IMG/VR virus record: IMGVR_UViG_3300037420_000520
Span: 1 to 37,568 of that record
Reading direction: 5' to 3' (one strand)
Length of the DNA: 37,568 nucleotides
Source of the DNA: a virus
Lineage: Duplodnaviria > Caudoviricetes
In this document: positions 18,122-27,408 of the stretch, one piece after another
How the letters are laid out: each line of letters opens with the position of its first letter
How positions within the stretch are numbered: the stretch's first letter is position 1
The notes under the pieces: model-generated
Database searches by the model: none
The model's input: only the letters and a program-made list of their open reading frames with translations
What the model was told of the DNA's origin: nothing
Translations under genes and position numbers: made by a program

Positions 18122-18910
18122 ATGGCCAAGAAAATGCTCGTTGCCGATCTCCTCTGCGGCGCTGGTGGCTCGTCCACCGGATGCCAGCGAGCCTTGCGAG
18201 AGCTTGGTCTTGAAATGGAACTGGTCTGCCTAAACCATTGGCCGACGGCCATAGAGACGCACAAGAAGAACCATCCAGAGGCCAGGCATTACGTACAAGA
18301 CATCGCGACGGTTCGGCCGCACATCATCGTTCCTGAGGGCTATCTTGACCTGCTGATGGCTTCGCCGACATGCACGCATCATTCCGTCGCCAGGGGCGGA
18401 AAGCCCACCAGCGATCAACAGCGGTCCGATCCATGGCACATCATCACATGGCTGACAGAGCTTCGCGTGAAGCGGATCATAATCGAAAACGTTTGGGAAT
18501 TCTGTGGCTGGGGGCCGGTCGATCATCGCACCGGAAAGCCGGTCGCATCGCGCAAGGGCGAATACTTCCATGCCTGGATTGAGACGATCAAGCGCCTCGG
18601 TTTTGAGCCGGAGTGGCGCAAGCTGAATGCTGCCGATTATGGCGATGCCACCACCCGGCAGCGGTTCATTCTCATGGCGCGGTCCGACGGCCGCAAGGTG
18701 CACTGGCCTATGCCGACGCACAAGAAGCGGGACGACGTCAAAGCGGACCTGTTCGCGACAGAACAGCCGTGGCGCCCAGCGCGCGAAATTATCGACTGGT
18801 CGATCAAGGGGCGATCGCTATTCAATCGCAAGAAGGCGCTCGCTCCGAAGACACTGGCCCGCATCTATGCCGGCGCCGAGAAATTCGGGCTATCCGATTT
18901 TCAGGGTTGA
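18122..18910 (+). pseudogene. C5 cytosine DNA methyltransferase, N-terminal part (motifs I-VIII), interrupted by ISL3 after 18887
   Basis: DLLCGAGG (I), ASPTCTHHS (IV), IENVWEF (VI), TTRQRFIL (VIII); frame ends a few codons into the IS end. Confidence 0.92.
18880..18887 (+). repeat. 8 bp target-site duplication, left copy
   Basis: GAAATTCG, identical to 21366-21373. Confidence 0.95.
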
Positions 18911-18914
18911 GACA

Positions 18915-20306
18915 TCACCAGAAGTCCCCGGCCTTCAACGCATACTCAAAGGTTGACAAATCCACGCCATGACCAACAGTCGTCGACAAAATTATATCCG
19001 TCTCTGGATCGCCCAAGGTCAGCTTGAAGTCGTAGAGATCGATGAGCGGTTTGACGTTGCCGTACTTCAGGAGCGCCTTGGCTCTGAGCGTCTCAAGGTC
19101 GTAACCACGGCCACCACGAGCAATCTCGTCGAGCAGGCTGTTCACTCCCTCGACGTACCCATTCGTATATCGAGCGTCGAAGTAGTTGAAGATGAGATTG
19201 TGCCAGCGCTTGTTGCGCATGAAGGACAGGATAGCCTTGAAGGCAGGCTCGAACTCCTTCGGCAGAAGCTCGCGCCAGGCCTCATAAGCCTTCTCCGCCT
19301 CTGCTCGGCTCTCTGCGTTGTAGATGTCGTAGAACCACTCTTTGAGGGTCACGGCCGTCTCGATGGCCGGATGTTGGCGGAAGACGCGCTTCAGTTCCAG
19401 TTTGTCGTCATCCTTGAGGCGATGGGGGCGAGCCGCCAACAGACCGATCTTGCCCTTCAGGGCTATCCTGTCCTCGTTGCTGACGGAATTCTGAATGGCC
19501 TTTCGGACGTTCGACACGGCGTAATCGGCGTAGCGAACGACGTGGAACCTGTCGACCACCACTGTGGAAGCCTTGAAGTACTGCTCGTTGAGTTCCTTGT
19601 ATGCCCAGTGCATGTCTTGTGTGATGACCTCGACCTTCATGCGCTCTTGGTGGGTCCATCGCTGGAAATACTCGACAAGAACCTCCTTCCTGCGGGAGTC
19701 CAGAATGTCAAGCAGCACGCGGTTCTCAACGTCACCAACGACGAAACGAGCCTGCCCACCCATGTACTTTTCGTCCATACCCATCACACGGGGAAGGTCA
19801 TAGGTGTAGTTCTTCAGCCGCTCTCTAGCGTGATCCTTGAACACGCGGCGGACGAGGCTCTCCTTCACGCCATTGATGTCACCGCTCAGGGAGAACTTGA
19901 GTTTGGTGCCGTCCTCGGCAAGCTGGTCGCGGAAGCGGATCGTCATGTTTCGCTTGGGGTCGATGAAGGGAAGATCATCCAGAAGGACCGCCCCGCAACT
20001 GCGGCATCGGTAGCGTTGCCGCTTGATGCGGAGGTAGGTCTCCATTCGCTGGATTGGATGGTCGCGGAAGTGAACGACCCGGGTGCCGTGTTTCACCACA
20101 TCGGGGTCATCGCACTCGCAAGTCGGCTCATGCGTGAAAACCGATGGCACAACGTCAACGTACAGTTTCCCGTCGATCTCCTCGATTTCCATGGACATGA
20201 AGCCATCCAGCCGAAGCAGGTCAAAGCCATGCGTCCTTGCAACGTCGTCCTTCACTTTTGCCCCCTGCAACGGGCGCAACCATACCGGGCTTCGGTAACC
20301 AGTCAA
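18915..20306 (-). CDS. ISL3-family DDE transposase (start may instead be GTG at 20255)
   Basis: Zn finger CECD...YRCRSC; GMDEKY, TQDMHWAY, VVDRFHVV, TNGYVEGVN. Confidence 0.95.
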   Translation of the reverse strand: MTGYRSPVWLRPLQGAKVKDDVARTHGFDLLRLDGFMSMEIEEIDGKLYVDVVPSVFTHEPTCECDDPDVVKHGTRVVHFRDHPIQRMETYLRIKRQRYRCRSCGAVLLDDLPFIDPKRNMTIRFRDQLAEDGTKLKFSLSGDINGVKESLVRRVFKDHARERLKNYTYDLPRVMGMDEKYMGGQARFVVGDVENRVLLDILDSRRKEVLVEYFQRWTHQERMKVEVITQDMHWAYKELNEQYFKASTVVVDRFHVVRYADYAVSNVRKAIQNSVSNEDRIALKGKIGLLAARPHRLKDDDKLELKRVFRQHPAIETAVTLKEWFYDIYNAESRAEAEKAYEAWRELLPKEFEPAFKAILSFMRNKRWHNLIFNYFDARYTNGYVEGVNSLLDEIARGGRGYDLETLRAKALLKYGNVKPLIDLYDFKLTLGDPETDIILSTTVGHGVDLSTFEYALKAGDFW

Positions 20307-20320
20307 TTAAGGGTGGCAGC

Positions 20321-21067
20321 ATGACGGCCTATTACAACGAAATCGATCCGTATGCGGCCGCTTGGCTGCGCAACCTCATCGTGGAGGGTCTAATAGCTAC
20401 TGGAGACGTGGATGAAAGGTCAATTATCAATGTTCGGCCAACTGACCTTGCCGGATATACCCAGTGCCACTTCTTCGCTGGCATTGGAGCATGGAGCTAC
20501 GCCGCGCGCCTTGCGAAATGGCCAGACAGTCGCCCTGTCTGGACTGGATCGTGCCCATGTCAGCCGCTCTCCAAGGCCGGGAGGAGATTGGGCGCGGCCG
20601 ATGATCGATATCTTTGGCCAGTGTGGCGCGACCTCATCCGCGAGTGCAGACCTCCTGTCATCTTTGGCGAACAGGTTGCAGTTGGCCTCGGCAGGGCGTG
20701 GTTTGACGAAGTTTCGTCTGACCTGGAGCGAATGGACTACGCCTGCGGGGCGCTTGTTGCCCCGGCTGCAGGCTTCGGGGCCGAGCACATCCGCGATCGA
20801 CTCTGGTTTGTGGCCGACTCCGGCGGCACGAGATCACCGAGACCTGTCCCTGACAGCGACGGTTCATCCGGCTTGGTTCGGCCGGAAGAGCTTCAGTGTA
20901 GCGACTTTGGCCTATCTGCGGGGATATTCCCCCGATCAGATCGCGCCTCTGTACTGCCGCTTGATGGGTCTGCCCGACGCGTGGATGCGGTGCGCGCCTT
21001 TGGCAATGCCATCGTCCCCCAAGTCGCCGCCCAAGTGATCGGCGCATACATGGAGATAGCCGCATGA
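20321..21067 (+). CDS. Passenger C5 cytosine DNA methyltransferase, main polypeptide
   Basis: AYYNEIDPYAAAWL, FFAGIG (I), GSCPCQPLS (IV), FGEQV (VI), HIRDRLWFVA (VIII), AFGNAIVPQVA (X); no motif IX. Confidence 0.9.
   Translation: MTAYYNEIDPYAAAWLRNLIVEGLIATGDVDERSIINVRPTDLAGYTQCHFFAGIGAWSYAARLAKWPDSRPVWTGSCPCQPLSKAGRRLGAADDRYLWPVWRDLIRECRPPVIFGEQVAVGLGRAWFDEVSSDLERMDYACGALVAPAAGFGAEHIRDRLWFVADSGGTRSPRPVPDSDGSSGLVRPEELQCSDFGLSAGIFPRSDRASVLPLDGSARRVDAVRAFGNAIVPQVAAQVIGAYMEIAA
20412..21038 (+). CDS. Overlapping alternative-frame ORF, probable second subunit of the passenger methylase
   Basis: 208 aa nested in the +1 frame; GGAG 6 nt upstream of ATG; LWPTPAARD and motif IX-like CRLMGLPDAW. Confidence 0.65.
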   Translation: MKGQLSMFGQLTLPDIPSATSSLALEHGATPRALRNGQTVALSGLDRAHVSRSPRPGGDWARPMIDIFGQCGATSSASADLLSSLANRLQLASAGRGLTKFRLTWSEWTTPAGRLLPRLQASGPSTSAIDSGLWPTPAARDHRDLSLTATVHPAWFGRKSFSVATLAYLRGYSPDQIAPLYCRLMGLPDAWMRCAPLAMPSSPKSPPK

Positions 21068-21291
21068 TCTACGCAGTGAGAGAGTCGCTTTGGCCAGGCA
21101 ACAACAGGCGAACCCTAGTCGAAATACCAAACGTCAAGTTGTTGAGATTGGCAAACGCCACCGCAATTTTGGTCAAATACCAGAAGGTGGATGTCGCCAC
21201 CGCCCACAAATGGGTGCTCGACGGCAAGGAGCACGAGACTGGCCTGTGGGTCGATGCCGGAAAGGTCCGCTATGCCCAGCCTCAAAGCTGA
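21064..21291 (+). CDS. Passenger hypothetical protein
   Basis: 75 aa, ATGA-coupled to the methylase, TGGAG RBS, inside the IS ends. Confidence 0.7.
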   Translation: MIYAVRESLWPGNNRRTLVEIPNVKLLRLANATAILVKYQKVDVATAHKWVLDGKEHETGLWVDAGKVRYAQPQS

Positions 21292-21321
21292 CCATCATCA
21301 ACCTCGAAAGACGAAAAGAAC

Positions 21322-22452
21322 ATGGAGCAACGATTTTGGCCATCAACCTCAGAAGTCGGAATGCCGAAATTCGGCTGGCCTGAGCCGTTCCTCGTGATCC
21401 TCAGAAACCACATGGCTGGGCAGAGCGTCAACCAGCCGCTTCCGACAATAGCAGCCAATGGGACGCATATCGGCCTCGCCGAGCCAGTCATCATGAACGG
21501 CCGCAAGGGCAATCAGGCGAAACCAGTGTCCAGCGAGCCTATTCCTACTCTCGACACCAAAGGCGGCGTCTGGCTGGCAGAGCCTCTTGTGCTGTCCGTG
21601 AACAATAGTGGCGCGCCCCGCACAGCTGGTGACCCTCTGCCGACAATCACTACTGGCGGAGCTGGAACGGAGAGGCGAGAGGGCTGTGCGCGACCGATGC
21701 TGATCGAGCCTTTCGTTTTATCGCAGGCATCGGGGGGGAGCCCGCGCTCAGTTGAAGAGCCAATCCCAACGCAGACGACCGGCGGCAACGGCGCTGCGCA
21801 TGCGCTGATTTCCCCGTATTACGGCTCTGGCTCTGGTGAGACCTGCAACAGCGTTGACGAGAGCCTTCCGACGATCACGGCAAAAGCTCGTTTTGGGATG
21901 GTGGTCCCGGTCACCAACTCGAACGGCGGAGCGCAGCCGCGAGACATCGCCACCGATCCTCTTGCCACCATGACCACTGCCAAAGGCGGCGAATTCGCAA
22001 TCGTCCTGCCCGTTACCCACGCTGGCGGCCATGACCGAGTTCTCGATCCGAACGACACGCCGCTGCCGACCGTAACCGGCGCCAACCGTGGCGAACTCGC
22101 CTTCATCACAGCGCAGCATGGGGAGCGTCCGGGGCAGGCGCCACGCGTTCACGACATCGATCAGCCGGCGCCGACGATCGCAGCCACAGGCCATGTCGAC
22201 CTCGTCCAGGCCACGCCGCACTATGACATCCTGTTTCGCATGCTGGAGCCTCACGAACTGGCAGCAGCCATGGGCTTCAATACCGATGACGCCGTCTACG
22301 AGTTTGCAGGCACCAAGACGGAAAAGATCAAGCAAATAGGCAACGCGGTTTCCGTCGCCAAGATGAAGGCTTGCGTCGGGGCGATCATGGCCGACGCAGC
22401 GCCGAAGCGTAAGCCGACTGTTGAGGACGAGTATCTTGAGGCAGCAGAATGA
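21322..22452 (+). pseudogene. C5 cytosine DNA methyltransferase, C-terminal part (repetitive variable region, motifs IX-X); native sequence resumes after the IS end at 21365
   Basis: Eight P(L/I/A)PT-type units; FRMLEPHELAAAMGF (IX), KQIGNAVSV (X); in-frame ATGs at 21322 and 21361 lie within the IS end. Confidence 0.9.
21366..21373 (+). repeat. 8 bp target-site duplication, right copy
   Basis: GAAATTCG. Confidence 0.95.
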
Positions 22453-27174: not shown

Positions 27175-27250
27175 TGAAGCGTAGCTCAGCAGGTAGAGCA
27201 GGTGACTGTTAATCACCTTGTCGCTGGTTCGAGCCCAGCCGTTTCAGCCA
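27175..27250 (+). tRNA. tRNA-Asn(GTT)
   Basis: 76 nt cloverleaf; GGTGA-CTGTTAA-TCACC anticodon arm; GGTTCGAG T-loop; encoded CCA. Confidence 0.95.
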
Positions 27251-27256
27251 GAATAA

Positions 27257-27332
27257 CGCGGGGTAGCCAAGTGGTTAAGGCCTCCGGCTCATAACCGGAA
27301 GATCGGCGGTTCAATTCCGTCCTCCGCAACCA
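27257..27332 (+). tRNA. tRNA with CAT anticodon (fMet-like acceptor stem)
   Basis: 76 nt; C1:A72 mismatch, G2-C71, C3-G70; TCCGG-CTCATAA-CCGGA; encoded CCA. Confidence 0.92.
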
Positions 27333-27408
27333 GCCTTCGTAGCTCAGTTGGAAGAGCGTCTGATTTGTAATCAGAATGTCAGGGGTTCGAATCCTCTCGT
27401 TGGCCCCA
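27333..27408 (+). tRNA. tRNA-Thr(TGT)
   Basis: 76 nt; TCTGA-TTTGTAA-TCAGA; GGTTCGAAT; encoded CCA; two U-U mismatches in the acceptor stem. Confidence 0.9.

Follow-up and report, generated by a model that had tools for sequence, protein, structure and literature searches.

A cargo-carrying ISL3 transposon in a phage methylase gene and the open antisense frame of its phage-dwelling lineage

Organization of the interrupted locus

The virus record IMGVR_UViG_3300037420_000520 (Duplodnaviria; Caudoviricetes; 37.6 kb) was analysed over its whole length of 37,568 nucleotides (nt), referred to below as the window. Its genes for a cI-like repressor, a DnaB helicase and terminase suggest that the phage is temperate. 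At positions 18888-21365 of the window, an ISL3 transposon of 2478 base pairs (bp) lies inside a C5 methylase gene of the phage and carries a second C5 methylase as cargo. Here, we describe this element and its relatives, an ISL3 lineage that dwells in phages and carries cargo, and we consider it fairly probable that ribosomes read through the element, which would make it non-polar in a coupled phage operon.

The insertion of the element in the phage methylase gene is real. GAAATTCG, an exact 8-bp target duplication, stands on both sides of it (18880-18887 and 21366-21373), and its terminal inverted repeats match at 16 of 24 positions. End comparison places one repeat at 18888-18913, on the 3′ side of the transposase gene, which is the entry end for phage transcription, and the other at 21340-21365, the exit end, from which all outward frames are free of stops. 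An inner copy of the right-end motif (CATCAACCTC...), detected by a repeat scan and present throughout the clade described below, is located at 21296-21316, 45 bp from the terminal copy. The element and both flanks are contained in one contig of one sequencing run, which is possibly the source sample, and the right junction is bridged in a second run. Transposition of ISL3 elements proceeds through a circular intermediate. No clean excision or empty-site joint was found in the assembled contigs of four runs, to which this search was confined, a result that argues neither for nor against current transposition; the single joint seen there (27 letters on a side, depth 2) was deemed unreliable. 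No RNA run was among those listed as containing the sequence.

The transposase gene (18915-20255, minus strand) probably encodes 446 amino acids from a GTG start at 20255, which follows a GGGGG Shine-Dalgarno-like stretch. The product passes the NCBIfam model NF033550 (236 bits against a cut-off of 180), matches both PF01610 and PF14690 in Pfam, and possesses D153, D227 and E361 (in the numbering of the 438-residue query), which are invariant among 50 homologues. By every feature tested, including the DDE transposase, GG-starting repeats of about 24 bp and the 8-bp duplication, the element belongs to ISL3.

The target methylase is cut between motifs VIII and IX. Its N-terminal half (18122-18910, plus strand, 262 amino acids; phrog_116) comprises motifs I-VIII, covers positions 3-182 of PF00145 and ends seven codons into the element at a stop codon (18908-18910). 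The C-terminal half contains the variable region and motifs IX-X (PF00145 positions 274-322) and is joined in frame to an ATG of the element at 21322 (a second ATG is at 21361), generating a restart open reading frame (ORF) of 376 amino acids that appears in the ORF list at 21322-22452 on the plus strand. Removing the element and one duplication in silico yielded a single ORF of 614 amino acids, with GAEKFG/WPEPF across the joint. A search with the N-terminal half retrieved 80 loci, one of which was an identical copy of the window locus and was set aside; all 79 others align unbroken over the insertion site, and an ISL3 transposase was not present within 3 kb of any of them. Thus, the original prediction of a 2478-bp ISL3 element with imperfect repeats and an exact 8-bp duplication, whose removal restores one C5 methylase, holds in full. 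In a structural model of the intact homologue L277 (mean predicted local distance difference test score 54.6), the insertion site falls at the end of a helix (245-257) and at the start of the variable region, where the model is unconfident (254-547). The variable region of the target (window 21400-22200) consists of repeated PLPTIT-like units and varies in length, the homologous ORFs having approximately 500-780 amino acids.

Since the C-terminal half receives an in-frame ATG, the target was perhaps not knocked out. By analogy with M.AquI, the two halves may still work as a split pair, and the phage may have gained a methylase rather than swapped one.

Cargo genes of the element

The cargo genes lie on the plus strand, opposite the transposase. 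The alpha frame of the cargo C5 methylase (20321-21067, 248 amino acids; phrog_363, E 3e-68) contains FAGIG, PCQ, GEQV and RDR together with a motif X-like end, and motif IX is absent from it. A second frame in the +1 register, the beta frame (20412-21038, plus strand, 208 amino acids; phrog_1008), carries the motif IX-like stretch RLMGLPDAW. The methylase is followed by a family-less gene of 75 codons (21064-21291, plus strand), which recurs as the last passenger in the related L007 and, outside any element, as a free gene of the phage in L421; its protein has no usable match in Atlas. Both genes and the ATGA overlap between them had been proposed before and are present as described, whereas the methylase that was thought to be complete is divided between two frames.

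At least approximately 600 viral stretches match the cargo methylase. Among the best 79 of these other homologues, a homologous +1 frame is found in all 79, and none has an ISL3 transposase within 2.5 kb. The motif IX-like pattern, scored in a form that we take to represent this motif, occurs in the +1 frame of 67 of the 78 complete homologues in this best-matching set and in the main frame of none of the 78. A motif IX-like stretch in an overlapping frame is likewise a feature of the four other cargo methylases in the clade. On its sequence, the cargo is an ordinary two-frame phage methylase of the M.EcoHK31I type, and the cargo as a whole may be regarded as captured, exchangeable DNA from phage early regions, in agreement with the proposal of phage-style cargo on an ISL3 element residing in a phage operon. 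In addition, the FAGIG motif lies about 50 residues into the protein (window 20321-20500), after segments that follow FAGIG in other cargo methylases, which suggests that the N-terminus has been rearranged in this methylase family.

A clade of phage-dwelling ISL3 elements

The element falls into a clade of 12 distinct elements (including the present one, L006, and with L010 and L085 counted as one) drawn from viral, genome and metagenome contigs. Its members are 49-100% identical and form a monophyletic group with a support of 1.0 in a 163-sequence tree that leaves out most low-GC non-viral controls. Exact 8-bp duplications were detected in 8 of the 12, each of different sequence; L011 and L086 possess element ends but no exact duplication, and L165 and L168 run off the end of their contigs. 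Approximately 50 additional proteins of the clade were detected, and the named relatives come from Agrobacterium, Rhizobium and Mesorhizobium. Each of the two bacterial genomes checked contains a single copy of the element, and in samples of 401, 401 and 301 related genomes no further genomic copies were found, only the centre genome being recovered each time. A plasmid collection yielded no clade member (best matches below 60% identity), a DNA pattern built on the right end had no viral matches, and one built on the left end found five loci, none of them new.

Cargo is visible in ten clade members. It is a C5 methylase in five and a PAPS-reductase-like gene in three, and the two remaining sets occur once each: a phrog_15826 and Vut_1 pair with a homologue of the 75-codon ORF, and an ASCH-like gene with two small genes. 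The targets include the methylase described here, a PAPS-reductase-like gene (L165), a DUF5131 gene (L168), genes of phrog_4786, phrog_4657 and phrog_1273, and family-less genes, the last recognised from ORF continuity alone. All PHROG matches on targets, cargo and flanks of the 12 members (on cargo only for L166) are on the strand opposite the transposase. Statements on orientation are based on PHROG matches because a guess from flank composition was noisy, being correct in five of eight clade cases and unclear in three.

The pairing of cargo and target bears on an earlier explanation of the locus, namely that methylase genes are targeted, or favoured by selection, as insertion sites and that the phage thereby exchanges its methylation specificity like for like. 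Methylases do account for five of the ten visible cargoes, and the two methylases of the window are unrelated by BLASTP (best E 2.7), so that their specificities may differ. L165, whose own cargo is cut off, has a PAPS-reductase-like gene as its target, and the cargo of L008, its nearest relative, is PAPS-reductase-like; this is a possible second like-for-like case in favour of the earlier idea. When insertion sites and cargo were tabulated for the 12 elements, however, both varied, and only one of the 12 targets, the one in the window, was a methylase; the other four methylase carriers occupy genes without a methylase match. The eight exact duplications are all different, none of the 79 other target homologues has been hit, and the element supplies the target's second half with a restart codon, all of which weighs against targeting or replacement. 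Considering that methylases make up half of the cargo and 1 of 12 targets, one methylase-in-methylase coincidence is not surprising. The combination is likely due to chance, and we regard like-for-like replacement as quite unlikely.

An open frame antisense to the transposase

A feature overlooked by the original prediction, as was the restart ORF, is an antisense ORF of 451 codons (18969-20324, plus strand; ORF list) that runs over the transposase gene in the codon register of the latter. ATGA overlaps mark both its ends, joining its ATG to a stop codon and its own stop to the start of the cargo. In each of the 12 clade members, 97% or more of the transposase match falls within the antisense ORF, whose length in complete members is 435-451 amino acids. 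Among the ten members with visible cargo, nine have an ATGA or GTGA overlap between the antisense stop and the first cargo start, and in L167 the overlap is 7 nt; the overlap is maintained although the cargo differs among members.

Antisense stops in this frame correspond to TTA, CTA and TCA codons in the transposase. Over query positions 1-415, the clade transposases contain none of them in 4884 codons, compared with about 36 expected from 54 non-viral ISL3 genes whose G+C content at third codon positions (GC3) is 0.7-0.9. An obvious question is whether such an open frame is a by-product of GC-rich codon use, given that the clade has a GC3 of 0.73-0.89 and that all ten control genes with GC3 above 0.9 have zero antisense stops. 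At matched GC3, however, only 4 of the 54 non-viral genes are free of antisense stops. The remaining A-ending codons are normal in the clade (8.3% versus 8.6% in controls), and the 14 other ORFs of the window hold 62 TTA, CTA or TCA codons in 3808. The shortage is limited to the in-register frame (0 versus 7.4 stops per 1000 in clade and controls, respectively), with the other two antisense frames at 50.6 versus 42.6 and 35.2 versus 35.6, and stop-free frames also occur elsewhere at GC3 of 0.54-0.68. Codon bias is therefore largely refuted as the cause and retains hardly any credibility.

For clade pairs ordered by rising protein identity, identity at four-fold degenerate sites is 0.43, 0.47 and 0.56, compared with 0.43, 0.45 and 0.50 in controls. 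Because these sites diverge much as they do in controls, the absence of antisense stops is not due to shared ancestry, and the antisense peptide appears to be under little constraint of its own. Conceivably, the product of the ORF is a functional protein, for instance one that regulates transposition or counters defence, considering that the length, start and end of the ORF are conserved in the clade and that the six closest pairs slightly exceed the controls in four-fold identity (0.56 versus 0.50). Such a protein is very unlikely, as distant pairs show no extra constraint, no family was detected in Pfam, PHROGs or NCBIfam, the recognition score in Atlas (1040; best match 0.82) is under the level of known families, and in other lineages the corresponding ORF runs for 600-900 codons over unrelated cargo. 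From these sequence comparisons, it seems that the openness of the antisense frame has been selected rather than the peptide sequence, the peptide itself being likely without function.

Entry and exit ends

The ends of the element have features that would suit the passage of ribosomes. At the entry end in the window, stops at 18910, 18956 and 18972 close the three incoming frames, a second GGTTGA copy being located at 18951-18956. Throughout the clade, all three frames stop within about 95 nt of this end, and in most members one of them stops in an ATGA or GTGA overlap with the antisense start. At the exit end, all three frames are open for at least 46 nt in nine of ten clade members. Start codons are present in all three exit frames in eight of ten clade members versus none of four outgroup elements (38-40% identity), which have a stop 2 nt inside one exit frame. 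In seven clade members, as read by eye, an ATG 31 nt inside the exit end follows a GGAG-like stretch. The terminus itself is GGATAGCC in three outgroup elements, GAAAGCC in most clade members and GGAATGCC in the window. All eight members that have an exact duplication provide an element start from which the second half of the target can be read in frame. A search of the plus strand between 18000 and 22600 gave no terminator-like site.

A conserved hairpin of about 75 nt is located just within the exit end of four clade elements, all on the minus strand (L007:3378-3490, L008:3951-4070, L012:4106-4225 and L085:5069-5180), and is absent from the element of the window. It is also present in a phage without the element (L421:4215-4315, plus strand), and 7 of its 24 predicted pairs show changes on both sides. 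The hairpin has no match in Rfam and may represent a signal, acting as RNA or DNA, that was taken up from phages. A scan of the window with Rfam gave three tRNAs and nothing else; these genes, for Asn, Met and Thr, stand side by side at 27175-27408 on the plus strand.

A possible route around polarity

Insertion sequences usually have polar effects and are regarded as poorly tolerated by phage operons, and untranslated RNA invites termination by Rho. In the mechanism that we propose, the element sits with its transposase facing against the operon and is entered by the phage early transcript. Ribosomes arriving from the target gene would stop within 85 nt and be handed to the stop-free antisense ORF, which would carry them over the 1.35-kb transposase gene. 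With the antisense stop overlapping the cargo start, and the cargo genes coupled to each other, translation would continue to the exit end, where start codons in all three outward frames could restart the second half of the interrupted gene. No long untranslated stretch would be available to Rho, so that the cargo and the downstream phage genes would stay expressed, and insertions in the antisense orientation would survive because they leave no long untranslated RNA. The layout, conservation, codon statistics and orientation are observed, and such translation and relief of polarity are inferred from them; either methylase may be active.

Several findings weigh against this mechanism. The upstream entry stop lies in the inner end repeat, which is common to the outgroup, and the target frame in the window stops 59 nt ahead of the antisense ATG, with at best a weak TTG mini-ORF as a link. 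The conservation of the antisense start stems in part from an invariant His codon (CAT or CAC, read as ATG or GTG on the other strand), and the element ends are related by descent, the counts made on them not being independent. Four of the eight clean clade insertions are within 13 codons of a gene end. Outside the clade, an antisense ORF is lacking in seven of the eight cultured-phage ISL3 genes examined, the Seahorse element stands antisense within an operon without such an ORF, and the outgroup elements L013 and L089 are antisense to phage genes without one; the ORF is therefore not required for phage life. Conversely, L054, L055 and L042 keep the ORF though their transposase runs with the flanking genes and polarity creates no need for it, L042 having the layout of the window in the opposite orientation.

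The last group of elements also fits a different explanation, namely that the open antisense frame serves in the control of the transposase: an antisense transcript shielded by translation would extend over the gene and its promoter and silence transposition, and relief of polarity would be a side effect. Consistent with this, a predicted transposase promoter (TTGACT-16-TATGGT, 20279-20306, minus strand) lies within the last codons of the antisense ORF, in a consensus scan that returned two sites in total, no more than chance predicts. GTCAA just ahead of the antisense stop, which is the -35 box of this predicted opposite-strand promoter, is invariant in 10 of 10 aligned elements, and the single copies in the two genomes checked would also agree with silenced transposition. 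Regulation does not account for the exact overlap with cargo starts that differ between members, for an exit end open in all three frames or for the antisense ORFs that also span unrelated cargo genes, and we consider it unlikely.

If ribosomes do read through the element, this lineage suggests a way round polarity in which selection keeps an antisense frame open for ribosomes to travel along, the product of the frame apparently not being selected. This would provide a function for a class of long antisense ORFs that annotation discards, another way for DNA-modification genes to pass between phages, and a non-polar cassette of natural origin that serves three frames.

Antisense frames in other ISL3 elements

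Among more distantly related ISL3 genes with GC3 of 0.5-0.9, 15 of the 47 viral genes and 5 of the 74 non-viral ones are free of antisense stops (Fisher p 0.0007, with relatives that are not independent), and two of the five stop-free non-viral genes have phage flanks. The stop-free genes are scattered over several parts of the tree. Many of them belong to elements with a second layout, in which the cargo shares the strand of the transposase and the antisense ORF, with 600-900 codons, runs across the whole element, even at GC3 of 0.54-0.68. In 10 of 43 viral elements with defined ends, the antisense ORF covers over 90% of element length. The related layout exists in a cultured phage, Bcep22 (L413, AY349011, approximately 18217-20374), where a 692-codon antisense ORF spans the whole ISL3 element, which is flanked by the exact duplication AGAAGAAC; the record has no annotation for this ORF. 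L075, a distant element of like layout, is antisense between terminase and portal genes. It is possible, at about even chances in our judgement, that several ISL3 lineages are specialised on temperate phages by being transparent to translation: an antisense frame without meaning of its own would be kept open over the transposase, in some lineages over the whole element, and the broken gene would be restarted in whichever frame it requires. Such elements could lodge within coupled operons, even in the interval from terminase to portal, and serve as vehicles that shuffle methylases and other early genes between phages.

In the second layout, the cargo is usually in the codon register of the transposase (L036, L054, L061, L069, L072, L080 and L413, determined by hand), as an element-long antisense ORF would require; in L055 and L198, likewise inspected by hand, it is not. 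Cargo-bearing ISL3 elements are also located in head-assembly operons, between terminase and portal genes (L075:4146-6328) and between portal and protease-capsid genes (L054:4415-6472). A DNA methyltransferase gene lies directly upstream of the ISL3 transposase in the cultured phages vB_LspM-01 and Vibrio phage K256 (L414 and L416), and that of K256 is inside the element repeats. Paired adjacent ISL3 transposase genes occur in Pseudomonas phage HB2107-3I (L412) and in L198.

Comparison with known systems

Engineered non-polar cassettes have stops in all frames at the entry, a translated body, and a ribosome site with a start codon at the exit. Compared with these, the present element is natural and mobile, would serve any of three frames, and uses the antisense strand of a transposase as its body. 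In a literature search at the level of abstracts with few subscription papers, no antisense ORF or three-frame restart was found described for phage ISL3 elements, and ISL3 is not mentioned in PMC3942029. The element of Bcep22, which is already annotated (AY349011), is likewise a phage-borne ISL3 element with passengers, an exact 8-bp duplication and a long antisense ORF. Its passengers are on the transposase strand and its antisense ORF covers the whole element, and the two transposases are approximately 33% identical.

Passenger-bearing ISL3 elements as such are already known: the available part of the report on ISPst2 (PMC6305408) describes an ISL3 element with two passenger genes, 24-bp GG-ended repeats (GGGTATCCGGAATTTCTGGTTGAT) and an 8-bp duplication. 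As far as this part goes, ISPst2 and the present element share an ISL3 transposase, a like repeat sequence, the duplication length and the number of passenger genes, and the repeats of the element in the window also resemble those given for ISArsp7. They differ in that the passengers here are phage early-region genes opposite the transposase, change by member and are coupled to a full-length antisense ORF, and in that no member of the present clade was found away from phage genes, the two genomes checked containing one copy each.

The cargo methylase finds its counterpart in M.EcoHK31I, which, according to the portions of PMC2836561 and PMC3404938 available, consists of an alpha protein without motif IX and a beta protein encoded in another frame within the alpha gene. 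The beta frame of the cargo is likewise wholly within the alpha gene and carries a motif IX-like stretch, a likeness in layout, and the cargo differs in being an orphan phage enzyme (phrog_363 and phrog_1008) with motif I about 50 residues in. For the target methylase, the same portion of PMC3404938 offers the nearest parallels: M.AquI is naturally divided between motifs VIII and IX, and M.SssI tolerates a break in the proximal part of its variable region. As in M.AquI and the split forms of M.SssI and M.HhaI, the target in the window is broken at a like place, but here the break was made by a transposon.

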